Numbered from the stretch's first letter, positions 28,899 to 55,830 are shown. The stretch: 64,000 bases of DNA from a phage (GCA_021081985.1 GCA_021081985.1_3639.1), one strand, 5' to 3'. The notes: generated from the sequence alone by a model not told the origin. Translations and numbers: made by a program.

Positions 28899-28899
28899 T

Positions 28900-28989: not shown

Positions 28990-29057
28990 ACTAAATCTGT
29001 ACTGGCTTTGATGTGTGACGATACCCTCCAATCGTGGTTGTTGGGTCAGTACAGTTT

Positions 29058-29133
29058 GGGAGTGTAGATCAGTTAGTAGATCGCTCGACCGATAATCGAG
29101 AGGACGTAGGGGCAGAGCCTACCACTCCCACCA
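29058..29133 (+). tRNA. tRNA-Ile-like (anticodon GAT) with non-canonical T-loop and C33; possibly degenerate
   Basis: Acceptor GGGAGTG/CACTCCC, D-arm GATC..GATC, loop ccGATaa, T-arm GTAGG-GGCAGAG-CCTAC. Confidence 0.4.
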
Positions 29134-29138
29134 AATAT

Positions 29139-29213
29139 GCATCCATAGTTTAATTGGGAAAACTACAGCCTTCCAAGCTGAAGTCGAGGGTTCGATGCCC
29201 TCTGGATGCTCCA
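29139..29213 (+). tRNA. tRNA-Gly (anticodon TCC)
   Basis: Acceptor GCATCCA/TGGATGC, D-arm GTTT..AAAC, loop cTTCCaa, T-arm GAGGG-TTCGATG-CCCTC, CCA encoded. Confidence 0.65.
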
Positions 29214-29338
29214 GTTAAAAGATGTCAATGAAATCCGCTTGGGTCAACTGAAGACCGTAACAAATTCCATGGGGTTGTGTTTGCGGTCCAACCCTAGACA
29301 TCTTCTATCTTTAGTAGAAGGCTTTAATACGGACGAGT

Positions 29339-29569
29339 ATGATGGTTTCTAAATTAATCATAACAAGGCATCATAATGCTAAAGAAATAGAGATTGTGAA
29401 TGCTGCTGGCACTCTTGTGCTAAAAGTTGGTAAAGACTGTCCTTTTGAATTGTGCCAGAAGGAACTTTTAAGTTTGTGCGGTTTCAGGTTTAAACAGATT
29501 ATCTTTGAAAATGCTTTTCAATATTCAGACTTAAACCAGTACATTATATCTAGGCTTGATCCTGCATGA
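29339..29569 (+). CDS. hypothetical protein embedded in tRNA array
   Basis: 76-aa ORF. Confidence 0.3.
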   Translation: MMVSKLIITRHHNAKEIEIVNAAGTLVLKVGKDCPFELCQKELLSLCGFRFKQIIFENAFQYSDLNQYIISRLDPA

Positions 29570-30123
29570 GATACTTGAAATATTTATCTTGGATCCTGTT
29601 AGCACCTCTTGATCCAATTATGTCGGCTCTCTGTGTTATTCTGGCTCCTTTTGTTGTTCCGTTCTATAATGAGAAGACAGGGCATCTACCCTATATTTTC
29701 AGGTGGATGGAAACATATGATAATCCTATAGACGGTGACAGAGGACACATAGAGAGATGGGAAGAAGTCCGTAAAATAGGAAGTTTTGGTGTTTACCTAC
29801 AACGAGTTGCTTGGTTGTGGAGAAATAAAGCCTACAATTTTTCCTATCACGTACTTGGACGTGAAATCGCATCTGTGACAAAGTGGAAAGGAAACATCCA
29901 TGTAAGCTCTGATGTGGAGGATAATCAACAAGGCTATTTGTTGATGTGGAATGACAATGCGTGGGGTGTATTCGCGTTTGTCCCGTCTTTTAGATTGTTT
30001 GGAAAACAATTTTACTGGCGAATTTATGTCGGTTGGAAACTGAAGAGTGTGGTTCCTGAAGACAGAGCTTTTTCAAGAGAGAGGGTGATGTTGGCATTTT
30101 TCATAAGTCCTTTCCGAAAATAG
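29566..30123 (+). CDS. hypothetical protein (hydrophobic N-terminus, Trp-rich) embedded in tRNA array
   Basis: 185-aa ORF, ATGA overlap with upstream ORF. Confidence 0.4.
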   Translation: MRYLKYLSWILLAPLDPIMSALCVILAPFVVPFYNEKTGHLPYIFRWMETYDNPIDGDRGHIERWEEVRKIGSFGVYLQRVAWLWRNKAYNFSYHVLGREIASVTKWKGNIHVSSDVEDNQQGYLLMWNDNAWGVFAFVPSFRLFGKQFYWRIYVGWKLKSVVPEDRAFSRERVMLAFFISPFRK

Positions 30124-30129
30124 TTTTTA

Positions 30130-30211
30130 ATGAGAGTAGCGTAACTTCACTGGGTGAAGGCTGGCCTCCAAAACCAGTGACTAAGAGGTTCGATTCCTCA
30201 CTCTCGTGCCA
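30130..30211 (+). tRNA. tRNA-like gene, possible tRNA-Trp (anticodon CCA), irregular D-region
   Basis: Acceptor ATGAGAG/CTCTCGT, loop cTCCAaa, T-loop TTCGATT, CCA encoded; D-region forms a tight 6-bp hairpin instead of a normal D-arm. Confidence 0.35.
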
Positions 30212-30212
30212 A

Positions 30213-30288
30213 AGGGGATTAGCATAGTGGCCTAATGCAACGGGCTTTGACCCCGTGATCGGTTGTTCGAATCAACCATCCCCTGCCA
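30213..30288 (+). tRNA. tRNA-Gln (anticodon TTG)
   Basis: Acceptor AGGGGAT/ATCCCCT, D-arm GCAT..ATGC, loop cTTTGac, T-arm GGTTG-TTCGAAT-CAACC, CCA. Confidence 0.75.
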
Positions 30289-30297
30289 AGTTAAAAC

Positions 30298-30387
30298 GGA
30301 GAAGCAAATCGATTGGCGACGAAACCACATTGGAAATGTGCTGACTGGTAAAACGGCTTGAGAGTTCGATTCTCTCCTTCTCCACCA
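30298..30387 (+). tRNA. tRNA-Ser (anticodon GGA), type II
   Basis: Acceptor GGAGAAG/CTTCTCC, loop tTGGAaa, T-arm GAGAG-TTCGATT-CTCTC, CCA; variable arm pairs weakly. Confidence 0.5.
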
Positions 30388-30401
30388 GTTTTTAAGGATT
30401 T

Positions 30402-31145
30402 ATGTATGCACTCTCCCCAAGAAAAAAAAATGGAAAACAGATATTTAATTTGTTGAAAAGCGGAAAAGGCTTCTCAAACCCGCTTCAATCAGGTCTTTCT
30501 CTGGTTGGTGGTAAAGTAAGTAGTCTATCTTCTTTATCTTCCTCTATTTCTTCGGTAACTAACCCAGCTATAAAGGCTCAATTAGCTGCCGCAGGTTTGA
30601 CAACTGGCGTTTTATCAAATTTTACTTCGTCTCTTGGTTCTGTTACAAGCACGACAAAAACGCTTGTTGATTATGGTCAGAAATCTGTTGAAGAGTTCTC
30701 CCAAAGAATGCACGCAGCGAGTAATTATATGAGTACTCTGAGCAGAATGGGAGAAAAGACAAGTTGTTCAATATTTAGTGACGTTATGTCTGTAGCCACT
30801 GATTTAGGTAAGAAAGCTATGGATGCCGTTAATTCCGCGATGGATGCGGTGAACGATGTTATGTCTCAATTGCAAGATGCAATAAATAAGGGTTTGAATA
30901 CAATATCTAGTTTGGCGAGTAAAGCTGTCTCAGCGATAAACAAAGGGATCCAGAAAATGTCTGAGTATGCTAGCCAAGTGACAAAGATGATTGAAGATGA
31001 AGCAAAGAAGTTGGCAGACTACTTAAAGACAAGTGCTGAAGGATTTCTCGCAGATATCCTACCTGATTGGTTTAACGATTCTTGTAAATCTGGTATAGTT
31101 GACCAGATTGCTACACCAGAGATGAAAGAAGTTCTTAAAAAGTAA
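30402..31145 (+). CDS. hypothetical Ser/Thr-rich helical protein embedded in tRNA array
   Basis: 247-aa ORF between tRNA genes; start may be internal. Confidence 0.4.
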   Translation: MYALSPRKKNGKQIFNLLKSGKGFSNPLQSGLSLVGGKVSSLSSLSSSISSVTNPAIKAQLAAAGLTTGVLSNFTSSLGSVTSTTKTLVDYGQKSVEEFSQRMHAASNYMSTLSRMGEKTSCSIFSDVMSVATDLGKKAMDAVNSAMDAVNDVMSQLQDAINKGLNTISSLASKAVSAINKGIQKMSEYASQVTKMIEDEAKKLADYLKTSAEGFLADILPDWFNDSCKSGIVDQIATPEMKEVLKK

Positions 31146-31147
31146 TT

Positions 31148-31241
31148 GGAAGATTAACCCTAATTTGGTAAGGGGTCTCCCTGCTAAGGAGATAGTAACC
31201 CAGAAATGGGTGTGCCAGTTCAAGTCTGGCATCTTCCTCCA
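31148..31241 (+). tRNA. tRNA-Ser (anticodon GCT), type II
   Basis: Acceptor GGAAGAT/ATCTTCC, loop cTGCTaa, variable-arm hairpin ACCCA-gaaa-TGGGT, T-arm GCCAG-TTCAAGT-CTGGC, CCA. Confidence 0.65.
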
Positions 31242-31320
31242 CTGTATGTCAAGGCTCAGATTTCTTCGGACCTGGGCGTTCGCCTTTGTTGGGTGTATAT
31301 TCTCGGCAGAGGCTATCTTT

Positions 31321-31409
31321 GGAGGCTGGGGTGCATGGTGCACAAGCTGGTTTGAACCCAGTCCCGCTGTAGAGATATGGTGACAGTTCGATTCTGTCAG
31401 CCTCCTCCA
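31321..31409 (+). tRNA. tRNA-Ser (anticodon TGA), type II
   Basis: Acceptor GGAGGCT/AGCCTCC, loop tTTGAac, T-arm GACAG-TTCGATT-CTGTC, CCA. Confidence 0.6.
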
Positions 31410-31632
31410 AGTTATCTTTAATGTAGCTTGTTTAGTTGCTTGGTGTGATTTTTCGGTGGATGGCTGCAACCATCTTATCGATACCCCAGAGCAGTCCGCT
31501 CTTTACTGGCGTAAGCCAAACACTTATGATGGTCATGTAATCGTAATCTATCATTAGTGTGCTCTCCCTGGAGAGCTGTTGCGTATAGCTAATTATTGTG
31601 TGAGTAATTAGCTATTTTAAAGATAATTTGAC

Positions 31633-31709
31633 GGATCTGTAGCCAAATGGTTTAAGGCACTCGACTTTTAATCGAGAGATTGTTGGTTCGAATCCAACCA
31701 GATCCACCA
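31633..31709 (+). tRNA. tRNA-Lys (anticodon TTT)
   Basis: Acceptor GGATCTG/CAGATCC, D-arm GCC..GGC, loop cTTTTaa, T-arm GTTGG-TTCGAAT-CCAAC, CCA. Confidence 0.8.
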
Positions 31710-31718
31710 AAATATTCA

Positions 31719-31809
31719 GGTTCTTTGACCGAGTGGTCGATGGTGACGGCCTGTTAAGCCGTTGGGAGGAATCTCCCCACCGAAGGTTCGAATCCTTCAG
31801 GAACCGCCA
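31719..31809 (+). tRNA. tRNA with anticodon GTT (Asn codons) but type-II body and G73 discriminator
   Basis: Acceptor GGTTCTT/AGGAACC, D-arm ACCG..TGGT, anticodon stem ACGGC/GCCGT with loop cTGTTaa, variable-arm hairpin GGGAG-gaat-CTCCC, T-arm GAAGG-TTCGAAT-CCTTC, disc G, CCA. Confidence 0.5.
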
Positions 31810-31893
31810 ATTCTTGACTTAATCAAGTCACAGATATCACCTAGCCAGCGATACCAGTTAGTAGATTCTGGGACAATTAAAATCTACATTTCT

Positions 31894-31971
31894 CTGTCCG
31901 TAGCGCAGCTTGGGTAGCGCGGGTCACTTGGGATGATCAGGTCGTTGGTTCAAATCCAACCGGACAGACCA
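31894..31971 (+). tRNA. tRNA-Pro (anticodon TGG)
   Basis: Acceptor CTGTCCG/CGGACAG, D-arm GCGC..GCGC, loop cTTGGga, T-arm GTTGG-TTCAAAT-CCAAC, CCA. Confidence 0.75.
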
Positions 31972-32013
31972 ATAAACATATACATATCAAAGCAGAAATG
32001 TACAGAGGATACC

Positions 32014-32205
32014 ATGTTAACAGTTAAAGTCGTATCTCCAAATGATGAACAAATTTTTTGTGGGAAAATTGTTGGGTATTGTGCTCATCAAAAGTCTATA
32101 GCTATTTCAGGTATTGACCAAAAAGTGTTTTTGTCTGAGGATCAGACCGCTTATGTGATCAATGCCAATGGAAAAACTATTTCTGTGTATCGTGGAAAAC
32201 CGTAA
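32014..32205 (+). CDS. hypothetical small protein (internal ATG of track ORF 31933..32205, which overlaps tRNA-Pro)
   Basis: MLTVKVVSPNDEQ...; AGGA RBS 5 nt upstream. Confidence 0.3.
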   Translation: MLTVKVVSPNDEQIFCGKIVGYCAHQKSIAISGIDQKVFLSEDQTAYVINANGKTISVYRGKP

Positions 32206-32219
32206 CTCTTAATATAAAT

Positions 32220-32296
32220 GGGCGATTGATGGAATTGGTATACATGTCAGGCTTAGAACCTGAATTTTGGGGGTTCGAGTCCCTCATCGCCTACCA
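32220..32296 (+). tRNA. tRNA with anticodon TAG (Leu codon CUA) but short variable arm (type-I body)
   Basis: Acceptor GGGCGAT/ATCGCCT, anticodon stem TCAGG/CCTGA with loop cTTAGaa, 5-nt variable loop, T-arm GGGGG-TTCGAGT-CCCTC, A73, CCA. Confidence 0.5.
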
Positions 32297-32301
32297 ATTA
32301 T

Positions 32302-32377
32302 GTGACGGTAACTCAGTTGGTAGAGTGCCTTGCTGAAGACTAGGTGGTCACAGGTTCGAATCCTGTCCGTCACACCA
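32302..32377 (+). tRNA. tRNA-Phe (anticodon GAA)
   Basis: Acceptor GTGACGG/CCGTCAC, D-arm ACTC..GAGT, loop cTGAAga, T-arm ACAGG-TTCGAAT-CCTGT, CCA. Confidence 0.7.
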
Positions 32378-34267: not shown

Positions 34268-34665
34268 TATGGTTTAAAACGCTGTTAACTTTCTTTTCTA
34301 GGAACATAAAACAGATAGGTGTTGTTTTGTGTTGTGTGGTTCTCGTCTGTGGTATCTTGGGGATAAAACATTGGTATAATGACCAGTTAACATCGTCCTA
34401 CAACGCAGGTGTCAGCGACACGGATCTTAAATGGGAGAGGATTAACCAGCAAGTTAGAGATCACAACAACGCTTTTAAAAAACAACAGCAGGATAAGATC
34501 GATGAGTTGTCAACCATGTTGGTGAAAGAGAGAGAAATTAATAACCAACTGAAAGAAGACCTTGATAAAAAGGTTAAAAGTTATAGCAAAACACAAGCAG
34601 GAAAACAGGTTTGCCTCGATAACCAGTTTGTTGATATCTATAACGACAGTTTGGGGTCTAAATGA
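34264..34665 (+). CDS. i-spanin (Rz-like inner-membrane spanin)
   Basis: N-terminal TM helix (IGVVLCCVVLVCGILGI) then charged coiled-coil; ATGA-coupled to downstream lipoprotein. Confidence 0.55.
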   Translation: MIWFKTLLTFFSRNIKQIGVVLCCVVLVCGILGIKHWYNDQLTSSYNAGVSDTDLKWERINQQVRDHNNAFKKQQQDKIDELSTMLVKEREINNQLKEDLDKKVKSYSKTQAGKQVCLDNQFVDIYNDSLGSK

Positions 34666-34955
34666 AAAAGTATGTTATCATGGTTCCTTTTCTATTGTTT
34701 ATGTTAACAGGGTGCACTTCACCACCTGAGAGAGTTGTTCCTGTTGCAAAAGAGATCATAATAAGCGATATCCTAGCAAGACCACCCGCTGAAGCTATGA
34801 TACCACCGAAAGAACCTGAAAAATTGCCAGGTGGTCTTAGTAATGCAGATGCTATCGAGGTGATTAAGAAAAACAACATTAAGGCTGCTGAAGATCGTAT
34901 GAAATTAAGAACGTTACAGCAGTATGTAAAGACAATATTTTCTTCAGACAAATAG
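34662..34955 (+). CDS. o-spanin (Rz1-like outer-membrane lipoprotein)
   Basis: Signal peptide with lipobox LTGC, Pro-rich mature part, 97 aa. Confidence 0.6.
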   Translation: MKKYVIMVPFLLFMLTGCTSPPERVVPVAKEIIISDILARPPAEAMIPPKEPEKLPGGLSNADAIEVIKKNNIKAAEDRMKLRTLQQYVKTIFSSDK

Positions 34956-34963
34956 TTGACAAT

Positions 34964-34995
34964 GCCCTTATTTAATGATAAGGGCTTTATTTTTA
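34964..34995 (+). terminator. intrinsic terminator after spanin genes
   Basis: GCCCTTAtttaatgaTAAGGGC followed by TTTATTTTTAT. Confidence 0.55.
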
Positions 34996-35050
34996 TCGTG
35001 ATTCGTGGTAAACTACCTCCTATGGTAGGAATAGAAAATATGGAGGTCTT

Positions 35051-36397
35051 TTGAGTAAAGTATTTGGACCTGCCAGTCCTAAACAAAAAATGATTTTGGA
35101 GAGTAAAGCCCAAATTCTAATAATTGGCGGGGCCGCCGGGTGTTTGTCTAAAGACCACGAGGTGTTGACACCATCTGGCTGGATTAAGATATCAGAATGG
35201 TCAGGACAGGACATTCTGCAATATGATAAAGCCACTGGGGAGGCTAAATTTATCCCTCCTTTAGAGTTTGTTAAACTCCCTTGTGAAAAACTTACAAGAA
35301 TAGAAGGTAATGGTATTTGTCAAGAGCTATCTGACGAACATACTGTGATTTATAAACCAGACTATAAATCACAGCCAAGAACACTTTCTTTTTCTGAAGT
35401 GGCAGAAAGACATAACAACTCTGTTAAAAAAGGTTGGACAGGTAAGTTCATAACTACATTTAACTATGATGGGCCTGGGATAGACATGACAGAAGGGGAA
35501 TTAAGGCTTCAGGTTGCTGTCATGGCTGATGGGAGAGTTGTTAAAGAAGGGAAAGATAATTATACACAGATGCGCTTTGCTAAAAAGCGTAAATATGACC
35601 GCTTAATCGAACTTTGTAAAAAGTTTGGATTAAGATATGAAGATAGAGGATCAAAACCCAGTGAAAGATATACCACTGGGGAACAGTACGAGGTCATTGT
35701 ATGGCCTAAATATCCTGATAAAAAATTTACAGAGAAATACTATCAGTGTTCAAATGAACAACTGGAGATAATACTTGATGAGATTTTTCATTGGGATGGT
35801 TCTTTTTGTAAGCCATATGGCGGTAAAACACATAATAGCTTTACAGGTAGATATTTTACTGCTCATAAGACGAACGCTGATTTTGTTCAGTTTATAGGAT
35901 CTTCTCTTGGTTATAATACCACCATAAGCCATGATACAAGAAGTGGAAAGGACAGTTATACTGTTAATATTATGGCTAGAGGAAAAGGATTAAGGTCACT
36001 GGCTAATAAAGACAGAAAAGCTGAGTTTAAAGAGTTTATACCTACGGATGGGTTTAAATACTGCTTTGTAACACAAACAGGTTTCTTTGTTACCAGACTA
36101 GAAGATTGTGTGGTTGTCACTGGGAATAGTGGAAAATCATATCTCCTACAATTGATGCCGCTTGCTTATGTCGATGACCCGCAGACAGCATGTATAATGT
36201 TTCGTAGGACAACACCTCAATTGACAGGTGCAGGTGGACTTTTTGATACAGCGAAAAGTATTTATTTGCAACTCGATAAGGAATGGAAGCCGAAGTTCAG
36301 GGAGAAAGCTCTGGAAGCAATTTTCCCATCTGGGGCAAAGGTGTTGTGGAGACACATGGAGTATGAGAATAACAAATTAGATCATCAGGGTGAATAG
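35051..36397 (+). CDS. terL: terminase large subunit, 5' exon (ATPase N-terminal part) containing an intein in the Walker A loop
   Basis: TTG start with GGAGG RBS; IIGGAAG/[intein]/SGKSYLLQ reconstitutes a GxxGSGKS P-loop; ORF reaches a stop at 36395-36397, probably intron-derived. Confidence 0.65.
   Translation: MSKVFGPASPKQKMILESKAQILIIGGAAGCLSKDHEVLTPSGWIKISEWSGQDILQYDKATGEAKFIPPLEFVKLPCEKLTRIEGNGICQELSDEHTVIYKPDYKSQPRTLSFSEVAERHNNSVKKGWTGKFITTFNYDGPGIDMTEGELRLQVAVMADGRVVKEGKDNYTQMRFAKKRKYDRLIELCKKFGLRYEDRGSKPSERYTTGEQYEVIVWPKYPDKKFTEKYYQCSNEQLEIILDEIFHWDGSFCKPYGGKTHNSFTGRYFTAHKTNADFVQFIGSSLGYNTTISHDTRSGKDSYTVNIMARGKGLRSLANKDRKAEFKEFIPTDGFKYCFVTQTGFFVTRLEDCVVVTGNSGKSYLLQLMPLAYVDDPQTACIMFRRTTPQLTGAGGLFDTAKSIYLQLDKEWKPKFREKALEAIFPSGAKVLWRHMEYENNKLDHQGE
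35141..36127 (+). mobile_element. intein with LAGLIDADG-like endonuclease domain in terL P-loop (about 329 aa)
   Basis: Starts CLSKDHEVLT (block A-like), ends CVVVTGN followed by +1 Ser; internal LQVAVMADGRVV and ILDEIFHWDGS motifs; boundary codons TGT 35141 and AAT 36125 checked. Confidence 0.6.
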
Positions 36398-37659
36398 CTT
36401 GCCCTTCGTGCCTATAACGGTGGAACTCCCTATGGGAAAATACCGTGCCACAGAATATGGAAATATAAAATCTGGGTGTAACGACTATCTCCGATGAGTG
36501 TAGGAGAGTAGAATCACAAGCGATTGGTGATCCAAACGGCACGCCAAGGATGGAAGATATAGTCTGTTCCACATGGAAACATGTGGCGGGTGTTTTAGCA
36601 CACCGCCTCAGTGTAGCGAACTGAGGGGACAATAAGTTGCAGTATACCTTTATAGGTTTTGATGAGGGTTGGTATTAGCTCTCTTTAAACCTCCCTAATT
36701 GTCGGGGAAACCTTTATTGTTTACATAACCAAGCAAATGTGGTAACATGTTTGTGGCCTACACTAACTATGTAGGGTATGGTAATATCATGTAAAATTAG
36801 GTAATCCGCAGCGAAGCATCCCTATGGGATGAACGTTCAACGACTATCGCTTACGGGCGTTAGGGCCAAGCGGTGAGGGAAACCTCCAGTCTTTCAGACT
36901 GCCGAAATGGGAGGATATTTGCGTAATAATATTAAAAAATGTGTTGACTGCCATAGAGAACTTCCTCTTGATAAATTTTTTCTTTCATCAAAAAGTAGTG
37001 ATGGATATTCTGGAGCTTGTAAAGAATGCTACATGTATTATAGACTTAACAACTCCAGAAAGAATAAGGATATGATTAAGAAAGAGGATGCTGCCATGTT
37101 TATACAAGATTTGGTATCATCTGGTGAACTTTTCGAATGCAAAACTTGCCGTAAGAAGTTTTTAGCTGATAATTTTTATACTAAGAGAGATTATGGTAAA
37201 GTGTATCTTGCAACAAATAGATGTAAAAGATGTGAAAAGTTTTACCAAATAGAGAGAAAGTTTGGCATCTCTGAGGAATATTACTTTTCAATGTTGGAAA
37301 GGCAGGGGTTTAAGTGCGAGATATGTAAAATACCTTTGGAAGATTATAAAAATCAAGGGTATAGAGATTTTTTCTCCGTAGATCATGACCATAAGACAGG
37401 GAAGATTAGAGGTTTGTTATGCGATAAGTGTAACAGGGCTTTGGGATTTTTCGGAGAAAATGAGGAAACACTTTTAAATGCCGCAGAATATATACGCAAA
37501 TATAAGATATAGTCTGGTCTGCATGGTGACATGCAGCAGCACGTAGTGGTGCGGGATAAGAGTAGCGATCTTATCTGAACAAAAACGACACAATTCACAT
37601 GGTCACAGATAGATTATCTGATATCTCGTCTACGTTCAAACTCTAAATATCCGAGCAGG
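36398..37659 (+). mobile_element. putative group I intron in terL carrying an HNH homing-endonuclease ORF (boundaries approximate)
   Basis: 1.26-kb interruption between two terL reading frames; contains aattgtcggggaaacc (P-like, 36667-36682), gggtatggtaata (36774-36786), aatccgcagcg (Q-like, 36803-36813), gttcaacgactat (R-like, 36835-36847) resembling conserved group I core elements recalled from the Tetrahymena and T4 introns. Confidence 0.55.
36907..37512 (+). CDS. HNH (His-Me finger, Endo VII-like) homing endonuclease encoded within the terL intron
   Basis: 201 aa; several CxxC pairs and VDHDHKTGKIRGLLCDKCNRALGFF matching the DHDH...RGLLC..CN motif of T4 endonuclease VII-type nucleases. 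Confidence 0.65.
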   Translation: MGGYLRNNIKKCVDCHRELPLDKFFLSSKSSDGYSGACKECYMYYRLNNSRKNKDMIKKEDAAMFIQDLVSSGELFECKTCRKKFLADNFYTKRDYGKVYLATNRCKRCEKFYQIERKFGISEEYYFSMLERQGFKCEICKIPLEDYKNQGYRDFFSVDHDHKTGKIRGLLCDKCNRALGFFGENEETLLNAAEYIRKYKI

Positions 37660-43444: not shown

Positions 43445-43470
43445 GATAGCTTAAATGCTACCTCTAATGA

Positions 43471-43500
43471 GGGGAGGTGAATTATCACCTCCCCTTTTTT
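43471..43500 (+). terminator. intrinsic terminator after major capsid gene
   Basis: GGGGAGGTGaattaTCACCTCCCC followed by TTTTTT. Confidence 0.6.
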
Positions 43501-43575
43501 CACATTCTGACCTTAATAATAGCCACTTATCCTGTGTTGTCAAGTGGTTTTTACTAAGGAATAAAAGGAGATTTT

Positions 43576-44112: not shown

Positions 44113-45366
44113 ATGACAGCAACAACAGGTGTTGGTGGTTTAATTTATGGTCGTGCATTGGTTGACCAGAAGACAGGAAAGAAAATAAATTTTGATGAAC
44201 TGGGTGGCGGGAATATTCCAGAAGATATAACAGATCTTATTGCATCTAAAGCCCCAATAGAAAGCCCTTCATTTACAGGGAACCCTCAAGCACCAACACC
44301 GTTGGATGATGCTATTGGAAAGGAAATAGCTAATGTAGAATATGTGAGGGGTTTAATTGCAAAATTGGCTGACTCAGCGCCTGAAACATTGGATACTCTC
44401 AATGAATTAGCGAAGGCATTAGGTGATGACCCTAACTTTGCGACAACCATAACTAACGCTCTTGCTGGTAAACAACCATTGAGTGAAATACTGACATCTT
44501 TGTCAGGATTGATTACTGCTGGAAATAAACTAGCTTATTTCAGTGATAAAAACGTAATGGCTTTGGCAAATCTCTCCGCTGTTGGTCGAGTTATCATAGG
44601 GCAAGACTCAAAAACTGGTGTTCTCGATTATCTGGGGATAAAAACCGCTGCCGCAAAAGATGTACAAAGGGATATCTACGATACCACAGAAGGGGTGGTA
44701 TCTTTACCAGGGGCATTTGGTTTTGGTGCGTTTTTTCCTACGGAGAAAGAAGTTGTTTTTCAAGAGAAGAATGGGCCAGAGGAATGGGTTTCTTGGTTGA
44801 GAAGTGCACAACCTGGTCGCTACCTTGTTCGCCAAGATTTACCTTCAGGTGGCACACCTATTATTAAAGGGATTACTGCTTTCAAAGGTATGGTTGAGGT
44901 ATTGTCACCATATCCAGCAGAGAATGCAGAGCAGGCAGCAAAAAATAGTAAACATGCCTATTTTTATGGCATAAATGGGGAGTTGTACCATTATCGCTTA
45001 CTGACTATTTTTGCCAATGGTGACTGGGTGAATATAAAAGGGCAATTCTCTTCTTTGCAGTCTACGGTAGGCAATTCTTGGGGGAGTCCTGATGTTGGAG
45101 GAATAATGTTAGGAGTGTATCTTGGCGCTTCAGACACTGATTCAAACAGAAAACTTGTTCGTGGTCAGACTATCCCAGGATCCCGCATAGGGTGTATAAC
45201 TCTTTACAGCAAAGTTTCCGCAACAGGTGCATATCAAAGTACACCAGTTTCTGTTACACACAGTACTGAAACACAGAGAGGTACGTTTATAGCCTTATCC
45301 GGTTCACCAAGCAATAGTAATGGTACTGATACAGGTTATATTGGCCTTTTTATGAGGATTGCATGA
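44113..45366 (+). CDS. tail fibre protein
   Basis: N-terminal ESPSFTGNPQAPTP motif typical of phage tail-fibre N-termini; contains one copy of the PGAFG..PGRY repeat domain. Confidence 0.55.
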   Translation: MTATTGVGGLIYGRALVDQKTGKKINFDELGGGNIPEDITDLIASKAPIESPSFTGNPQAPTPLDDAIGKEIANVEYVRGLIAKLADSAPETLDTLNELAKALGDDPNFATTITNALAGKQPLSEILTSLSGLITAGNKLAYFSDKNVMALANLSAVGRVIIGQDSKTGVLDYLGIKTAAAKDVQRDIYDTTEGVVSLPGAFGFGAFFPTEKEVVFQEKNGPEEWVSWLRSAQPGRYLVRQDLPSGGTPIIKGITAFKGMVEVLSPYPAENAEQAAKNSKHAYFYGINGELYHYRLLTIFANGDWVNIKGQFSSLQSTVGNSWGSPDVGGIMLGVYLGASDTDSNRKLVRGQTIPGSRIGCITLYSKVSATGAYQSTPVSVTHSTETQRGTFIALSGSPSNSNGTDTGYIGLFMRIA

Positions 45367-45935
45367 TGCTAGATATTAAAGATATCAAGTCTCCACAGTA
45401 TCTTCTTAATGGCGACGTTGATTGTCTGGTACTTTTTGATGGTTTTTCTGATTATCTTCCATACACCGCTTCCAGCAACGACTATAGTGAAACTGGGAAA
45501 GCAGTTTGGGATTCCTTACAGTCTGGTAATTTTGGGGAGATTGCCCCGTATGTAGTAAACCCTCAATTTATCGAGGCATTAAAGCAACAGATGTTATCAG
45601 AAATAAAAGAGTGGAGAAAACTGGAAGAAAGCTCTACAGCTATTGTTTCTTATAATGGTGCAAGGTATGATGTCAATAATGCAACCCTTGGTCGTATTTA
45701 TCCAGTATTATTAGCACAAAAAGCATCCTCGGCTAGACAAGCTGTGGTTTGGAGAGATGTTGATAACAAACCTGTAGAGATGAGTAGCTCTGAATTTGAA
45801 AATCTTGTTGTAGCTATGTCTTCCGAGTTGGCAACTAAGAATGATTCAATATACATCAAGCAACGAGAAATGAAAGATCAAGTGCTTTCAGCCTCTACGG
45901 TTGAGGAATTACAAAGGATAAAAATTGGGTGGTAG
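45363..45935 (+). CDS. tail fibre assembly protein (putative)
   Basis: 190 aa, ATGA-coupled directly after a tail fibre gene. Confidence 0.4.
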   Translation: MMLDIKDIKSPQYLLNGDVDCLVLFDGFSDYLPYTASSNDYSETGKAVWDSLQSGNFGEIAPYVVNPQFIEALKQQMLSEIKEWRKLEESSTAIVSYNGARYDVNNATLGRIYPVLLAQKASSARQAVVWRDVDNKPVEMSSSEFENLVVAMSSELATKNDSIYIKQREMKDQVLSASTVEELQRIKIGW

Positions 45936-47716
45936 CTATGGATTATAAGGATAAAGTTGTCAATGCTGAAGTCATACTTCCAGATGGGCATAGTATTGGA
46001 GGATCAGGACTCCCAAGCCAATCTTTTAAATTATACACAGAAGACACCGCGACCATAAAACTTTCAGGTAATGGTGAAAAAGCAACACCACTTAAAGGTG
46101 TTGTTGTGGTGGCAGAAGATGAAAATAATGCTCTCCAAGCTGGAGATAATGGGTTAGCTGTTAAGGTTAGCCCTGCTGCAAATAACCTGTTGGAGTTGAA
46201 ACAAGGGGCATTATATGTAACAGCGCCCGAAATAAATATCCCTATATCTCCTAAAGAAGGAAATGCTTTAACAAATCTGACTTCTGAAGGTGAAGAGGGG
46301 TTGTATGTTGCACCTACCAAAGTACAAGGATGGCTTTATGATCCTGCGCCTGGTGTTGCAGCTTTGCCTGGAGCTTTCGGCTACGGAATGACAAATCCTG
46401 GAGCAATTTCACTTATTGCTTACAGTCTTGGCGATGTTGCACGTTCTGCCCATAACCTACACCCAGGTAGGTATTATACTTTCACCACACGATCTGAGGA
46501 AATGACCGGAATAACAGAAATTATCTGGCTGGATAATGGCTGGGGCGACAAAACCAGCCAGACAGCAACAAAGCTGGTTCTGTTTTTTGGAAAAGACGGT
46601 CGTATGAAGTATACAATCCGTGGCGACAATCCAAGGGAGCCAGCAGTGTGGTATGATTTGTTAACTGCCAAACAAGCGAATATTCATGATCGCACGGCTG
46701 GTGTTGCAGCCATACCGGGAAGTTTTGGGTACGGTATGGCAGCGAGCGATGGTGTCACCTTATCGTTGCTAAACATTGATGAGATCGCTTCTCTTGCTAA
46801 TCAGACCATGCCGGGGAGGTATTATGCCCATATACAATTCCCAGCAAACTCTGGCGTATTTGAAATAATATGGCTAGATAATTGGCAAAATGATAAAACT
46901 TCAGCAACGGCAAGTAAATTGATCTTGTTTTATGGCGCGGATGGTAGTGTTAAGTATACAATTAGAGGCTCAGACCCTAGTACCCCTGTTTCCTGGGTAG
47001 ACCTTGGAGGAAGTTCTGCCACCTATTCACTATCTATCGGCACAGTTTCCTCTTTGGAAAGTGGGCAACAGGCAACCGCATCAATAACTGGTGATTCTCC
47101 TTCACAAGTTCTTAACTTAGGTATCCCTAAGGGTGCTGATGGACAAACAATAAAATCTGTTAATGCTGTTGTTAAAGAAATAGACAGTGCACAACAGGTA
47201 ACACTGACTTTTACAATGACAGATGATTTAAGTCAACAGGCGAGCTTTAATATCCCATTTTCTCCTCAGCCGACTATGAAGTTGTCAGCAACATCTGGGA
47301 ATTTCTCTTTCAATTATAGCGATACACCTTCAGCGAAAAAAGCAGCGGGGAGATCTGGGTCTTCTATATATTTGAAAACAACAGTTGATCTGAACAGATC
47401 AACTGCTGGCAGTACAGATGTTATGGTGGATGTTCGTTTGACAGAGATACCTTGTACGGAAGACGGTACGTATCTTGATTATGATATCTATGCAGAATAC
47501 CCAAGTGTTGTCGGGTCAGGGCAACCCACAGTGGCTGTATGGCTTATTCTACCAACAGTTCCCACGCATACCATTGATCCCAAGACGAAGACAATAACTA
47601 AACTTCTTCGTGGTGATGGTTTATCAGGACTTAATGGAATCATTCCTATTGCAGGTGCAGACGAACAAGTCCACGAATTTAAATATTTCTTGCAATATTC
47701 TTATCTGAACAACTAA
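45929..47716 (+). CDS. tail fibre / receptor-binding protein with tandem internal domain duplication
   Basis: Two about 110-aa repeats (ALPGAFGYGM..PGRYYTFT..EIIWLDNGWGDKTSQTATKLVLFFGKDGRMKYTIRGDNP and AIPGSFGYGM..PGRYYAHI..EIIWLDNWQNDKTSATASKLILFYGADGSVKYTIRGSDP). Confidence 0.55.
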   Translation: MVAMDYKDKVVNAEVILPDGHSIGGSGLPSQSFKLYTEDTATIKLSGNGEKATPLKGVVVVAEDENNALQAGDNGLAVKVSPAANNLLELKQGALYVTAPEINIPISPKEGNALTNLTSEGEEGLYVAPTKVQGWLYDPAPGVAALPGAFGYGMTNPGAISLIAYSLGDVARSAHNLHPGRYYTFTTRSEEMTGITEIIWLDNGWGDKTSQTATKLVLFFGKDGRMKYTIRGDNPREPAVWYDLLTAKQANIHDRTAGVAAIPGSFGYGMAASDGVTLSLLNIDEIASLANQTMPGRYYAHIQFPANSGVFEIIWLDNWQNDKTSATASKLILFYGADGSVKYTIRGSDPSTPVSWVDLGGSSATYSLSIGTVSSLESGQQATASITGDSPSQVLNLGIPKGADGQTIKSVNAVVKEIDSAQQVTLTFTMTDDLSQQASFNIPFSPQPTMKLSATSGNFSFNYSDTPSAKKAAGRSGSSIYLKTTVDLNRSTAGSTDVMVDVRLTEIPCTEDGTYLDYDIYAEYPSVVGSGQPTVAVWLILPTVPTHTIDPKTKTITKLLRGDGLSGLNGIIPIAGADEQVHEFKYFLQYSYLNN

Positions 47717-47726
47717 GGGGATAATT

Positions 47727-47984
47727 ATGGCAACAACAGGTGTGGCTGGTAAAGTATATGCATCAAGCCTTGTTGATATAAAAACTGGAAAATCTGTGAA
47801 AATCGAAGATATTATTGCTGGAGGCTCAGATAGCTATGTTCTTCCAGCGGCTACGGAATCAGTATTAGGAGGTGTTAAGAAAGCACAAACACAAGCAGAT
47901 TCTGTGGCTTCAGATGTCTCTACGTTGGTCAACGATTTTAATGCTTTGCTTGCCAAGTTGAAAGCCGCTGGTATTATGTCGTGA
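47727..47984 (+). CDS. short paralogue of tail-fibre N-terminal domain
   Basis: MATTGVAGKVYASSLVDIKTGKSVKIEDIIAGG parallels MTATTGVGGLIYGRALVDQKTGKKINFDELGGG of the fibre at 44113. Confidence 0.35.
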   Translation: MATTGVAGKVYASSLVDIKTGKSVKIEDIIAGGSDSYVLPAATESVLGGVKKAQTQADSVASDVSTLVNDFNALLAKLKAAGIMS

Positions 47985-48015
47985 TAAAAAAGACCCTTCG
48001 GGGTCTTTTTATTTT
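47985..48015. terminator. bidirectional intrinsic terminator
   Basis: aaaaaAGACCCttcgGGGTCTttttatttt; A-run on one side and T-run on the other; convergent genes on both sides. Confidence 0.6.
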
Positions 48016-48413
48016 AGGAGTTCCTGTACTCCTTTATTCAAATTTGCATTAATATACGGTTCACGCCCATTCTTATAGAAAGTACAGATGTATTTCCCAG
48101 TGTAAGATTTTTTTCCTGAGATAATTGCGACATCATCAAAATATTGATATGCTTCTGCTTGCTCTGCAATTCTGCCTTCAAAGCCTGATGACACAACAAT
48201 CACGTCTGGTTTAAATGCTTCTCTGAATCTCTTATCGCAAGATAATTGTACAATACGGCTAATTGCCTCATCTTTTTCTTCTGGTGACAACCAACTTGCC
48301 TCGACAGATTTATAATCATTAATGTCTGGGTTATTTTTCACATATTGGAGAGTCCCCGCTGCAATAACAGCACAGACGCACAGACCAATTGTAATTTTTA
48401 AAATATTTTTCAT
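48009..48413 (-). CDS. reverse-oriented secreted/lipoprotein-like protein (moron candidate)
   Basis: 134 aa on minus strand inside plus-strand structural module; N-terminal KITIGLCVCAVIAAG signal/lipobox-like sequence. Confidence 0.45.
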   Translation of the reverse strand: MKNILKITIGLCVCAVIAAGTLQYVKNNPDINDYKSVEASWLSPEEKDEAISRIVQLSCDKRFREAFKPDVIVVSSGFEGRIAEQAEAYQYFDDVAIISGKKSYTGKYICTFYKNGREPYINANLNKGVQELLK

Positions 48414-48477
48414 AAATCCTCCATAGCAGTTGTTGTGTTTATCTTACCTACGGAATTTTTCGTGTCAAGCGTTTTTA

Positions 48478-48506
48478 ATGACAAAAATTGTATTTTGTGA
48501 TAATAT
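48478..48506 (+). promoter_or_regulatory. sigma70-like promoter (ATGACA-17-TAATAT, with upstream TG)
   Basis: ATGACAaaaattgtattttgtgaTAATAT upstream of the ORF at 48541. Confidence 0.45.
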
Positions 48507-48540
48507 AGTTACTAACAAGTAACATAAAATGGAGAGTTAG

Positions 48541-49059
48541 ATGACAGACCAAGAAATTGTTGATTACATCAGGCTCCTGCTTGGGTCAATATCCCCAGAG
48601 GCACTACCTGATGAAGTTATCATGGCATTCCTTGAGATGGAGAAAAAAAGAGCAAACTGGCCTAACCCATCATCCACGCCTTGCGACATGTGGAGAGTGG
48701 TCTATAACACAATGGTGGCTGTATTAAGATGGTTAATTCTTCAAGAGATAAATTCTGGCGAGGCATCCATCACAGAAAGATTGGAAAAGATAGGTGATGA
48801 GACAATACAGGTGAAAGGCGGATCGTCATACCAGAACTGGAAAGATTTTCTGGACTGGCTACTGCAAAACCCTGATTACGTCAATAGCTGCCTGAATGGT
48901 GTCTCTGGTTTGGTTATTGTGGGCGGTGTGCGACAGGATGAGTTTTGGCGTGTTAAGAGTAATCCTAACTCAAGAAGCCCGTTTGATGTTTCCGGTATAG
49001 TTCCTCAAACAGGAGTTCCCGGTATTCCTCGGAGATACCCAAAACACAGGTATTATTGA
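48541..49059 (+). CDS. hypothetical head-tail joining region protein
   Basis: 172-aa ORF, GGAGAG RBS. Confidence 0.3.
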   Translation: MTDQEIVDYIRLLLGSISPEALPDEVIMAFLEMEKKRANWPNPSSTPCDMWRVVYNTMVAVLRWLILQEINSGEASITERLEKIGDETIQVKGGSSYQNWKDFLDWLLQNPDYVNSCLNGVSGLVIVGGVRQDEFWRVKSNPNSRSPFDVSGIVPQTGVPGIPRRYPKHRYY

Positions 49060-49124
49060 CAATCGTATTCCTAATTATTGATTTTGCTTGGATAATGTGG
49101 TAAAATACCTTAACGGGAGTTCTT

Positions 49125-49601
49125 ATGAGAACAAAATTTAAATCTCATCAAGATTTAAGTGCTTTGGAGAATTTTTATAACTCTGTACAGCAACTTGATA
49201 AAAAACAAGTCTCCTATGGTTATTATGATGACCCACACTATTCAGGACTAAATACTGCAACTCTGGCAGCTATCCATGAACAAGGCTGGAATAATCTTCC
49301 AGCCCGTACATTCATAACTAGCGCGGCTGTGTCCTTTCAAAAGGATTTGGAGAAATTACAGAAGGAGTTATTCGGCACGTTAGCATCTGGAAGTAATAAT
49401 CCAACCCCAATGCTGAAAAAAATTGGTAAAGCAGGTGCTGAAAAAATTAAGTTTGTAATAGACTCTGGGCTTTTCCCTCATAATACTGTATCAGATGCAT
49501 GGGCAGATGTCAAAGGTTTTAGTGCAGCTATGTATCATTATGGGGATTTAAGAGATTCCACAACTTATAAGATTTCGAACAGAAGAGGTTCAGGGGCGTA
49601 A
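49125..49601 (+). CDS. hypothetical structural protein
   Basis: 158-aa ORF; promoter-like TTGATT-17-TAAAAT upstream. Confidence 0.3.
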   Translation: MRTKFKSHQDLSALENFYNSVQQLDKKQVSYGYYDDPHYSGLNTATLAAIHEQGWNNLPARTFITSAAVSFQKDLEKLQKELFGTLASGSNNPTPMLKKIGKAGAEKIKFVIDSGLFPHNTVSDAWADVKGFSAAMYHYGDLRDSTTYKISNRRGSGA

Positions 49602-49604
49602 ATT

Positions 49605-50039
49605 ATGGCGGGATACAAACTTATAGGCAAGAACAAATTGATACCCAGAGTTACCATGAAAGGTAGACACAGGCAGTTCAAAAAGACAGACTTAGATAAT
49701 CCATTTGAAAATGGTGGGTTGGATATTGAGTATGTTGAATTTGATGTACCTGAATGTGTCGTTCAACCTATTAGTGGTAAAGCAGCTAGGGATTACACGT
49801 CCCAATTAGTTCCTGAAGGTGGTAGGCAGTATGATTCCTTTACTGTGTATTCATCTGTGATGTTAAAAGGCCCAGTTGAAGGATCTGATAACATGGCTGA
49901 TCAGATTCTATTAATGAACTCTCGTGGTGAGATGGAGTGGTTCACAGTTATTAAATCTGATTTGTATCAGACCACAGGTGTCTCTAGGTTCAGAGCTTAT
50001 GTGGTGGCAATACCAGAAGGGACAAACGGAGGTATTTAA
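49605..50039 (+). CDS. hypothetical structural protein
   Basis: 144-aa ORF tightly packed. Confidence 0.3.
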   Translation: MAGYKLIGKNKLIPRVTMKGRHRQFKKTDLDNPFENGGLDIEYVEFDVPECVVQPISGKAARDYTSQLVPEGGRQYDSFTVYSSVMLKGPVEGSDNMADQILLMNSRGEMEWFTVIKSDLYQTTGVSRFRAYVVAIPEGTNGGI

Positions 50040-53163: not shown

Positions 53164-53406
53164 ATGAACTATGCAAGAAAAAATAGCTCATTGACTTGGT
53201 TCGATTATTTGTGGTGTCGTGCTCTGAAGAGTTTTAAAGGTGAGTCTTATTCCTCACTTGAGTCTGCTGACATGGCCTACCTGCTTAAACTGAACGAATA
53301 TCTTGATATCGAAGAGTTTATCCAAGACGTACAGGAGAGAGAGGAACAAAGTGCAGCCAATGCTGCCGCCGCTGCAAATAGGTCGCGCCGAGGTAGAAGA
53401 GGTTAA
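53164..53406 (+). CDS. tail assembly chaperone -1 frame extension (track ORF)
   Basis: Open in -1 frame relative to the upstream chaperone ORF; ends RSRRGRRG. Confidence 0.4.
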   Translation: MNYARKNSSLTWFDYLWCRALKSFKGESYSSLESADMAYLLKLNEYLDIEEFIQDVQEREEQSAANAAAAANRSRRGRRG

Positions 53407-53410
53407 TCTC

Positions 53411-53446
53411 AAGCCAGGTTCCTTCTCGGAACCTGGCTTTTTTATT
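53411..53446 (+). terminator. strong stem-loop, terminator-like, before tape measure gene
   Basis: AGCCAGGTTCCttctcGGAACCTGGCT followed by TTTTTTATT. Confidence 0.55.
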
Positions 53447-53457
53447 GAGGAAAATCT

Positions 53458-55830
53458 ATGGCGAATATCATAGTAACTAAAACCGTAAATGCTGTCGAGT
53501 GGTCTGTAGATCGCACCAGTTACGGTCGTGCAATGAAAGCTATAAAATCCCTGAAGAAGGAATGGGAAAAGACTAACAGAGCTTTCACTTCTAATAAAAG
53601 TAATCCGGCAGCAATTTATAAACGTTCTGCGCAAGAGGCTCGTCTTGTAGCTAAAAGATTACACCAAACTGAACGTGCAGAGCAAGCAAAATCTACGGCA
53701 CATGCTATTGCAATGGCAAAAAAGGAAGCTCGTGCTCGTGAACAAATAGCCAAAGTTGAGAGCGCGAGAAGAAAGCAAGCAGTAGCCAGACTAACAAACA
53801 GAAGAACACCTGAAGAACAAAAAGAATATAATGCATTAAAATCAAAGTTGAAGCAGATGGAAAAAACAGGTTCTGGATATGTAACAAATCCAGAAATATC
53901 TGCTGCCCGTCAAGCAAGATTGCAGCAAGAACTTGCAGCAAGAAAGTCTTCAGGGTCTGCCTCTGGTATTGTTGGGGATCCTAATAGTCGTCACGATCCA
54001 AGTCTTGTGGCTGCCCAGAACTCTGCTATGGAACGCTATCATAAATCTATTCCGAAAGAAAAAACAGCGGATGAGATTAAGGCAGAAAAAGATGCTAATA
54101 AGAAGAAAGAAAGAGAAGCGTTAAGAGCAGAAAGGATAAAGGCTGCAAAACAATCAACAATTGCTAATGCTGCTGTAAGACTTCGTGCTAAGTATGGTGA
54201 TGATTTCAGGTCTAAAATTAAAGGTTATGATGATCTGGAAAAGAGATTTATGCAAAGCCAGACTATGAGAGCTTCTAATTTCCGTGCTGAATTGGCAGCA
54301 ATGGAAACAGGACTCCGCAAAGCTAAGGCAAATACACTATCTCTTGATCAAGGATTGAAAAACCTTCGTAGCACATTAATTAGTGTTTCTGCTGCATACG
54401 GAGCTTTTAATGCTGCCGCAAGTGTTGTGAAAACAGGACAATTCTTTCAAGGCATGGAAGCTACCATGTTAATGGTTTCTGATGACTCAGAAGAAGCAGC
54501 GAAAAGAATACAGTTTGTTCGGGAGCAATCTTACAGATTGGGTTTGAATTTAAAAACCGCCGCCCAAGGTTATACCCAAATGTCCATATCTGCCAAAGGT
54601 GTTTTGAGCAAGGCGCAAAATGACGAACTGTTCAAAGGTTTCTCAGAATATGCTACTGCACTTCAGGTTGATCCTGTAAAATACCAGCGTGGTATTACCG
54701 CTATCCAACAAATGATGGGTAAAGGTCAGATCATGGCTGAAGAATTAAAACAGCAGTTAGCCGAGGGTATTCCTGGTTCTCTTGATGTATTCCTTAAAGC
54801 CACACAAGAAGCATTCAATGATTCATCTATAGACATTGCAAAATTAATGGATATGATGAAGAATGGAGAGCTAAAGGCTTCAAAAATTCTTCCTTTGGTC
54901 GCTAAGTATTATGCCGAGGCTGCAAGAAAAGGTGGTGCACTTACCAAGGCACAACAAAGCAACCGTGTTGCTATGCAGCGTTTACAACAAACATGGATGA
55001 ACTTTCAAAATAAGATATTTGAAAGTGGATTTGGGGATGAATTAACTAAAACGTTTAATGATTTGTCTCACATGTTGGATGCTAAAGGACCGTTAGCTGA
55101 GAAAGTTGGACAATTTACTTCTGGATTCATAAAGGGCTTTATGGATATCGCACATACGATATCTAATGTCTGCATTTTTATAAATGCAGAATTAAACATG
55201 TATATCCCACAATGGATAAAGAAAAGTGAGACATTCCAAAAAGCGACTAACTGGGTAGGTTGGGGTCTCGGTGCTCTATTCTTCGCGACTTCCTTGGTTA
55301 GAGTATTCAGAATCTTGGCTAAAATTGCTGGAATAACGGGAACATTGAAAGTATTGAAGGATATCTTTGGTGATGGTGACGATAAACCTAAAAATCCAAG
55401 AAAACCAAGAATACCAAAATTCCTGAGACGCGGTAAAGGTTGGCTCGGTTTAATAGCAACAGCCGCTATAGCAGCAACAGGTTTGGATGTTGATGACTCC
55501 GAAGAACCAAGTTCTGACCAAATACCTACAAAATCAATGCAGGAAGATTTTGTTAAGAACAGGAGTATTTCAGGCGGCCTTTCTCAATGGTGGGATAGTT
55601 TATGGGCTGGGCATATGCAGGATAAAGCCAACTATCTTCAATCCCATAATCTAATGCCTGGCGGATCTGCTACAGGTCAAACTGTAGCTCCTATGGTTAT
55701 TCCTACCGAGCCTGTCAGTGGTGAAATAACAATTAAAATAGATGCTGGAGAATTACGGAATATGATTGACCAGCAAATAGAGACAGCTAATATGGATAAC
55801 ATTAATCTTATTCTTGCTGTCCCTCAATAA
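53458..55830 (+). CDS. tail tape measure protein
   Basis: 790 aa, extended Ala/Lys/Glu-rich helical N-half and hydrophobic segment, located after the chaperone pair. Confidence 0.7.
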   Translation: MANIIVTKTVNAVEWSVDRTSYGRAMKAIKSLKKEWEKTNRAFTSNKSNPAAIYKRSAQEARLVAKRLHQTERAEQAKSTAHAIAMAKKEARAREQIAKVESARRKQAVARLTNRRTPEEQKEYNALKSKLKQMEKTGSGYVTNPEISAARQARLQQELAARKSSGSASGIVGDPNSRHDPSLVAAQNSAMERYHKSIPKEKTADEIKAEKDANKKKEREALRAERIKAAKQSTIANAAVRLRAKYGDDFRSKIKGYDDLEKRFMQSQTMRASNFRAELAAMETGLRKAKANTLSLDQGLKNLRSTLISVSAAYGAFNAAASVVKTGQFFQGMEATMLMVSDDSEEAAKRIQFVREQSYRLGLNLKTAAQGYTQMSISAKGVLSKAQNDELFKGFSEYATALQVDPVKYQRGITAIQQMMGKGQIMAEELKQQLAEGIPGSLDVFLKATQEAFNDSSIDIAKLMDMMKNGELKASKILPLVAKYYAEAARKGGALTKAQQSNRVAMQRLQQTWMNFQNKIFESGFGDELTKTFNDLSHMLDAKGPLAEKVGQFTSGFIKGFMDIAHTISNVCIFINAELNMYIPQWIKKSETFQKATNWVGWGLGALFFATSLVRVFRILAKIAGITGTLKVLKDIFGDGDDKPKNPRKPRIPKFLRRGKGWLGLIATAAIAATGLDVDDSEEPSSDQIPTKSMQEDFVKNRSISGGLSQWWDSLWAGHMQDKANYLQSHNLMPGGSATGQTVAPMVIPTEPVSGEITIKIDAGELRNMIDQQIETANMDNINLILAVPQ

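Follow-up and report, generated by a model that had tools for sequence, protein, structure and literature searches.

The Imm, Sp and RI proteins of phage T4 are small, early, periplasm-facing membrane proteins that act on a superinfecting phage or on the timing of lysis; Imm and Sp act at the inner membrane or in the periplasm, and structures of Sp, RI and the holin T have been solved. Receptor blockers of the T5 Llp and Cor type are lipoproteins, and the morons of temperate phages, such as gp15 of HK97, are cassettes of a promoter, an open reading frame (ORF) and a terminator lying between conserved genes. Here we describe a gene that shares features with each of these groups. It occupies positions 48009-48413 on the minus strand of a 64,000-nucleotide stretch of phage DNA (GCA_021081985.1; the whole stretch is called the window below), where the original prediction had placed a lipoprotein-like moron candidate in reverse orientation within the structural module. 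The window comes from a virulent myovirus of the Vequintavirinae: its bases 47000-50000 are 95.9% identical to the Escherichia phages 18-1-2, 19-1-2, 24-2-1 and vB_EcoM_TH18, and they share 92.8% identity with Av-05, of the genus Avunavirus. We conclude with high confidence that the ORF is a conserved, separately transcribed gene of a Vequintavirinae clade, with a promoter of its own and a shared terminator hairpin, and that it encodes a bitopic non-lipoprotein with a predicted cystatin/NTF2-like periplasmic domain. What the analysis adds is the rejection of the lipoprotein assignment, a conserved back-to-back promoter pair, the anatomy of the insertion, the clade-restricted distribution and the fold.

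The 134-residue minus-strand frame and its position between plus-strand fibre genes and head-tail genes were found as originally described (Table 1). The gene is real and has been on record since the PVP-SE1 genome, in which the product is called a membrane protein and a note gives it a single transmembrane segment by TMHMM and Octopus. The hidden Markov model of PHROG 11434 covers the product from end to end (E 2.5e-64, 216 bits, residues 1-134 on profile positions 1-134 of 134). Far from being absent or non-conserved in close relatives, the gene is kept in 66 phage records, in which tblastn gives identities of 38-98%: the closest relatives reach 98% and Av-05 85%, Seunavirus (gp66 of PVP-SE1, GAP31, 4MG) is at about 50%, and Mydovirus (KB57, Mydo and numerous phages of Klebsiella) at 38%. 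Across the PHROG 11434 alignments the length is held at 132-137 residues and 23 columns are invariant. The named members, PVP-SE1 gp66 (YP_004893872), Av-05 Av05_0081 (YP_009111155), KB57_068 and Mydo HWB97_gp241, share with the window gene the full-length family, the slot, the antisense orientation, the promoter core and the terminator.

Outside these phages the family was hardly seen. In large protein sets its members fall into 16 clusters when grouped at 90% identity and into 4 when grouped at 50%, and a HMMER profile search of 1.8 billion cluster representatives returned only four true clusters, all of about 135 residues; long multi-stretch matches such as P0024 were rejected as repetitive junk. 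No homologue was present in the 5,426 E. coli genomes and 72,556 plasmids searched, just one partial match of 17 residues was obtained among 185,579 GTDB species genomes, and the matches in IMG/VR were the same phage genomes, with no new contexts. Since the matches are confined to these phages across the searches, the family appears to be narrow and limited to one phage clade. Some orthologues carry other names, namely 'adenosine deaminase' in 18-1-2, 19-1-2, 24-2-1 and TH18 (OK136180, OK181858, OK181861, ON075799) and 'putative portal protein' in Salmonella phage 19 and GEC_vB_MG (KR296684, MW006477). Both labels are wrong and find no support in sequence or model.

Separate transcription of the gene is supported by the elements on its two sides. 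The 127-nt spacer 48414-48540, upstream of the start codon, holds back-to-back promoter-like sites on both strands. The predicted sigma70-type promoter of the ORF consists of an UP-like A-rich tract (48469-48477), a -35 element TTGACA (48463-48468), a 16-nt spacer and a -10 element TAAGAT (48441-48446). In an alignment of seven phages the -35 element and the upstream A-tract are invariant and the -10 element always reads TAnnnT, while the remaining spacer and the coding sequence have diverged. The core TGTCATYAAAAASRCTTGACA is unchanged in all seven although their proteins are merely 37-85% identical, and such invariance in spite of protein divergence argues for more than chance. The left half of the same TGTCATYAAAAASRCTTGACA block is the -35 element (ATGACA) of the divergent promoter of the head-to-tail adaptor gene, so that the two predicted promoters stand back to back. 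The adaptor promoter is conserved in relatives, also in CR3 and Hena1, which are without the ORF.

On the other side, the 24-nt gap between the convergent stop codons is taken up by the hairpin GACCC-TTCG-GGGTC (47992-48005), which an A-run borders on one side and a T-run on the other. Its folding energies on the two strands are -15.9 and -13.8 kcal/mol (z -2.5 and -3.1); on the strand of the ORF the hairpin (-13.8 kcal/mol) abuts the stop codon and is followed by six U. All six relatives that were folded have it too, an A-U pair being replaced by G-C in a compensatory change, and the PVP-SE1 record annotates a terminator on both strands at this place. A simple rule-based terminator scan did not call it, presumably because the maximal stem swallows the T-run, and the hairpin was assessed by folding and conservation instead. 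Both flanks of the original prediction, a bidirectional terminator on one side and a promoter-bearing spacer (TTGACA-16-TAAGAT with GGAGGA, its core invariant in seven phages) on the other, were thus confirmed. Transcription would run leftward from the sigma70-type promoter of the ORF and end at the hairpin shared with the head-fibre gene.

The promoters of the ORF and of its neighbours are of different classes. Exact copies of TGTGRTAAWAT, the extended -10 element of the adaptor promoter, occur in the window only at 48496, 49096 and 59435 on the plus strand, all of them before structural genes; copies with one mismatch lie at 36738, 36777 and 55875. This element corresponds to the motif TggTAaAAtA found upstream of late genes in rV5 (PMC3606486). 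The promoter of the ORF shares the build TTAAAA-N5-TTGACA with promoters in the tRNA/short-ORF region at 21855, 25996, 26774 and 28502, which have the form TTAAAAT-N5-TTGACA-N17-TAnnAT. As the ORF has a promoter of host type, unlike the TGTGRTAAWAT class of its neighbours, its product is probably made early by the unmodified host RNA polymerase; judged from the promoter sequence, reading by that polymerase would be early or constitutive.

The slot of the gene is fixed. It lies antisense between the head-fibre-like and adaptor genes in Av-05, PVP-SE1, GAP31, KB57, Mydo and divergent metagenomic members, and wherever it is present in Avuna-, Seuna- and Mydovirus the slot and the orientation are the same. 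No gene was found in this slot in rV5 (Vequintavirus), CR3 (Certrevirus) or Hena1 (Henunavirus): rV5 has a 59-nt spacer at the corresponding position, and in CR3 and Hena1 the terminator hairpin is directly followed by the adaptor promoter. The adjacency of these two elements in CR3 and Hena1 implies that the cassette of promoter plus ORF sits exactly between them. The terminator seems to have belonged to the upstream operon beforehand and to serve transcription from both sides, and the anatomy is moron-like, with the cassette apparently exploiting this terminator in reverse. A minus-strand TTGACA adjoins the terminator upstream of the adaptor promoter in CR3 (L007 3928-3945) and in Hena1 (L008 3923-3935); it could be a remnant of a lost cassette or a chance match.

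Taken together with its absence from the slot in rV5, CR3 and Hena1, the predicted and conserved promoter, ribosome-binding site and terminator of the gene support its description as an independently expressed accessory gene. The term moron fits in part. As in the morons of temperate phages, a promoter and ORF lie inserted between two elements which in relatives adjoin each other, a terminator follows, and the product is a membrane protein. Unlike those morons, the gene belongs to a virulent phage, occupies one locus in three genera rather than occurring sporadically, and was found neither in the plasmids searched nor, as a prophage copy, in the bacterial genomes searched; nor does it show a clear compositional signature. 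Among the 12 genes compared it has the lowest GC content, 0.358 (the next being 0.359, the window mean 0.396), and the GC content at its third codon positions is 0.281, within the range of its neighbours (0.26-0.43). The pattern across genomes points to vertical inheritance at one fixed position in a clade of virulent phages.

A slot fixed between the head-fibre and adaptor genes in three genera and in metagenomic relatives would also suit a morphogenetic helper, a factor bound to the membrane that assists in assembling the head, neck or tail. We consider such a role very unlikely, since the gene has the opposite orientation and a promoter class unlike that of the late genes, its domain is predicted to lie in the periplasm, away from assembly, it evolves far faster than the virion genes, and it is absent from rV5, CR3 and Hena1 despite their homologous virion genes.

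The N-terminal part of the protein was compared in 19 members of the family, the window protein and 18 homologues. The best 19-residue Kyte-Doolittle window of the anchor scores 2.0-2.4 in all members, and the uncharged run spans 16-24 residues, at least 19 in 18 of the 19, which is long for a cleavable signal. The N-terminal flank carries a net charge of +1 to +2 and the C-terminal flank one of about -2 to +2. A basic N-flank, a long uncharged run and a neutral or acidic C-flank together indicate an N-in, C-out signal anchor that looks uncleaved. The sequences therefore directly support a predicted bitopic inner-membrane protein with a short basic cytoplasmic N-terminus of 5-6 residues and one signal-anchor helix, and not a lipoprotein.

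The lipobox-like N-terminus on which the original prediction had relied was accordingly rejected. The pattern [LVI][ASTVI][GAS]C had no match in a set of 17 members, neither it nor a PROSITE PS51257-like pattern matched any of the 19, and the cysteines near the N-terminus, expected to be kept in a substrate of signal peptidase II, are not conserved. Cys12 and Cys14 are confined to Av-05, the window copy and the 99% twin of that copy, which differ in these two extra anchor cysteines from the other PHROG 11434 members; they are absent from the Seuna- and Mydovirus members, and the single Cys16 of the distant relative P0018 does not align with them. About 11 more hydrophobic residues follow Cys12/Cys14. 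The Mydo orthologue was left a hypothetical protein by annotators who ran LipoP. A horizontally acquired outer-membrane or periplasmic lipoprotein that blocks a receptor in the manner of T5 Llp or Cor, to which the hydrophobic N-terminus with two cysteines in the window protein and the flanking promoter and terminator had pointed, is in view of these results hardly credible, the more so as the composition is not clearly foreign and no copies were found outside the phage clade. The gene shares with Llp and Cor that it is a phage-encoded envelope protein; it differs from them in its inner-membrane anchor and in a family without lipobox or conserved cysteine at the end of a signal.

The remainder of the protein, about 105 residues, forms a domain in which the alignment shows an invariant motif SWL(S)xEEK and two invariant cysteines, Cys59 and Cys110. 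Two invariant cysteines in a soluble domain fit an oxidising compartment and a periplasmic disulfide, and a Cys59-Cys110 bridge probably staples the domain. An AlphaFold2 model from a 17-sequence alignment has a predicted local distance difference test (pLDDT) score of 87.9, with helices at residues 2-27 and 44-64 and five strands, and an independent model of a 37% homologue agrees with the fold (BFVD, template-modelling score 0.83). The models directly support a predicted cystatin/NTF2-like alpha+beta roll that faces the periplasm. Foldseek searches with the domain model gave nothing in PDB at E<=0.001 and only the family itself in BFVD. The structures it resembles, those of cystatin, latexin and NTF2-like proteins including the periplasmic domains of the type IV secretion components VirB8, TraE and DotI, are 4-11% identical in sequence to the domain. 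VirB8, TraE and DotI have in common with our protein a bitopic N-in anchor and a periplasmic NTF2-like domain; they differ in that the latter has no Pfam match and no type IV secretion context, its neighbours being virion genes. At the level of models, the cystatin/NTF2-like resemblance is one of fold only and informs on shape only.

A domain of this shape invites comparison with inhibitors. A host-directed periplasmic inhibitor or binder would use its cystatin/latexin-like domain to bind a host envelope enzyme or complex, such as a periplasmic or outer-membrane protease or a peptidoglycan hydrolase or synthase, and would stabilise or remodel the envelope during infection. This is rather unlikely. 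The protein is predicted to have the cystatin fold but lacks the inhibitory features: the motifs QxVxG and PW are absent from the family alignment and there is no Pfam cystatin or latexin match. The same fold is common to many non-inhibitors (NTF2, VirB8, the CaMKII hub), and a protein that binds a conserved host partner would be expected to diverge more slowly than this domain does.

The divergence of the gene is indeed much faster, by sequence comparison, than that of its structural neighbours. Protein identity to Av-05, PVP-SE1, GAP31 and KB57 is 85%, 51%, 51% and 37% for the ORF, against 97-100%, 78-84%, 72-84% and 59-74% for five neck and tail neighbours. Codon differences from Av-05 number 20 non-synonymous and 24 synonymous in the ORF, compared with 0-4 and 10-22 in four neck genes and 14 and 99 in the sheath gene. 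Within the protein the anchor helix is the fastest-changing part (52% identity to Av-05, 93% for the domain). Fast divergence fits a protein engaged with a changing partner. As a counter-defence factor the protein would neutralise a membrane-associated abortive-infection or exclusion system of the host, for example one encoded by a prophage. A lineage-specific, fast-evolving gene with a separate host-type promoter has the typical traits of an arms-race accessory; we nevertheless regard this role as improbable, as most known anti-defence proteins are cytoplasmic and no match to a known family was found.

A role in lysis also has to be considered. With its N-terminal membrane helix and small periplasmic domain in a virulent myovirus, the protein is built like T4 RI, and a lysis-timing factor could be a small class III-like holin or else a protein that resembles an antiholin or assists the holin. 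The cysteines in the periplasmic domain are in keeping with an RI/holin T-like build, and 32-53% of the anchor residues are Gly, Ala, Ser or Thr, a composition that leaves room for a releasable signal-anchor-release (SAR) type anchor. We judge a lysis function fairly unlikely all the same. The anchor, with its Kyte-Doolittle values, is more hydrophobic than a typical releasable SAR helix, and the fold is not that of RI. No lysis gene is adjacent, no holin T partner was identified, and sister genera without the gene manage lysis. Moreover, the family profile showed no sequence similarity to Sp, RI or holin T when compared with all PDB chains at E<=10, and no fold similarity of the domain to Sp, Imm, RI or holin T was found. 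The spanins of Av-05 and PVP-SE1 are assigned elsewhere and group with those of rV5, which is without this gene. An i-spanin was considered as well and judged unlikely: the N-terminal transmembrane helix is there, but the rest is a compact alpha+beta roll and not an elongated coiled-coil, and no o-spanin gene accompanies it, the lone internal ORF (48038-48199, 53 residues) having neither signal nor lipobox and the neighbours being virion genes.

The original prediction had offered superinfection exclusion and envelope modification as examples of a function; both are plausible, and no homology supports either. We tentatively prefer post-adsorption superinfection exclusion or immunity, in the manner of T4 Imm and Sp, on the grounds of regulation, envelope location, accessory status and rapid divergence. 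Imm and Sp, likewise small envelope products of a virulent myovirus that are transcribed apart from the virion genes, offer the closest functional analogy. Under this proposal the protein would be made from early infection onward by the unmodified host RNA polymerase, and its periplasmic domain would act as a binder or inhibitor, most likely of the machinery with which a second, related phage penetrates or ejects its DNA. It is conceivable, if doubtful, that PHROG 11434 represents a separate class of superinfection-exclusion or immunity proteins, early and tethered to the inner membrane, whose cystatin-like domain, stapled by a disulfide, would bind and block a periplasmic part of an incoming Vequintavirinae-type virion; the candidate targets would then be the tail tip, the tape measure or a cell-wall-degrading module, and the class would be unrelated to Imm, Sp, Sie, Llp and Cor.

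Several observations weigh against superinfection exclusion. No sequence or fold relationship to characterised exclusion proteins was found with Pfam, NCBIfam, PADLOC, PDB or Foldseek: the ORF protein had no Pfam match below E=0.1 and none in NCBIfam or PADLOC, the family profile matched no PDB chain sequence at E<=10, and the fold is generic. In the literature we found no expression or functional data for any PHROG 11434 member. An inner-membrane anchor cannot reach outer-membrane receptors, so that only exclusion after adsorption could be meant. The early timing is deduced from promoter type only; rV5-type phages have sigma70-like promoters throughout the genome (PMC3606486), and the adaptor promoter itself has a fair -35 element. 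Finally, the divergence falls mainly in the anchor helix and may reflect no more than weak constraint there.

Table 1. Coordinates of the gene, its predicted signals and its neighbours in the window
Feature	Position	Strand	Details
ORF	48009..48413	-	134 residues, ATG start, stop codon 48009-48011; PHROG 11434 'membrane protein'
Signal-anchor part, codons 1-27	48333..48413	-	basic MKNILK and hydrophobic helix; predicted N-in, C-out
Globular alpha+beta domain, codons 28-134	48012..48332	-	predicted helix 44-64 on a 5-stranded antiparallel sheet
Shine-Dalgarno sequence GGAGGA	48417..48422	-	3 nt upstream of ATG; relatives keep GGAG/GAGG at this position
Sigma70-type promoter of the ORF (predicted)	48441..48477	-	TTGACA-16-TAAGAT, 10 of 12 matches
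Divergent promoter of the adaptor gene (predicted)	48478..48506	+	ATGACA-17-TAATAT, extended -10 TGTGATAATAT at 48496-48506
Bidirectional intrinsic-terminator-like hairpin	47986..48015	both	stem 47992-47996/48001-48005, loop TTCG
Three tail-fibre genes	44113-47716	+	upstream of the head-fibre-like gene
Head-fibre-like gene, 85 residues	47727-47984	+	C-terminal part of PF11133, E 1.7e-17; PHROG 14753
Head-to-tail adaptor gene (rV5 gp057 homologue)	48541-49059	+	PHROG 2663; orthologues PF26075 Phage_Adaptor_PhiTE

The plus strand from about 32 to 64 kb of the window carries virion genes: terminase, portal, decoration, major head and fibre genes, and those from the adaptor gene onward. The head-fibre-like gene, convergent with the ORF, is the final gene of the head and fibre transcription unit. 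The adaptor gene, which occurs in 264 phage records, opens the neck and tail unit and is followed by the neck, tail-terminator, sheath, tube and tape-measure genes. Three minus-strand ORFs were scanned in this structural block, and the one described here is the sole one with family support; the other two (34658-35113 and 53254-53634) have none and are probably spurious.

Some further features of the window were recorded. ORF 35051-36397 matches the terminase large subunit only in part, and the 509 nt after it (36398-36906) are non-coding. The terminase gene (35051-36906) looks interrupted, possibly by an intron or an insert resembling a homing element; Rfam at gathering thresholds gave no intron match in this region. 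In the spacer 43445-43575, between the major head gene and the next plus-strand gene, a second antisense sigma70-like site, TTGACA-16-TATTAT with an A-rich upstream tract, lies at 43506-43543 on the minus strand, close downstream of a plus-strand terminator hairpin (43470-43500). No ORF follows it; should the site function at all, its product would be an antisense or small RNA. Thirteen tRNA genes are clustered at 26046-32374 on the plus strand, with short ORFs in between. A 556-nt divergent region separates the minus-strand gene block (1-21.6 kb) from the plus-strand block, and inside it 21880-22060 is an extremely AT-rich repetitive stretch (tatattatat...), possibly with a regulatory or origin-like role.

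What emerges is chiefly a clean-up of labels, and the gene is an ordinary, well-defined and easily testable accessory candidate rather than a discovery. Its possible function bears on practice, as Vequintavirinae (PVP-SE1, Av-05, Mydovirus phages of Klebsiella) serve, or have been suggested, as agents of biocontrol and therapy, frequently as parts of cocktails. If it is true that the gene excludes related phages or alters the envelope, the design of such cocktails would be affected, and a new fold would join the short list of exclusion proteins of virulent phages.

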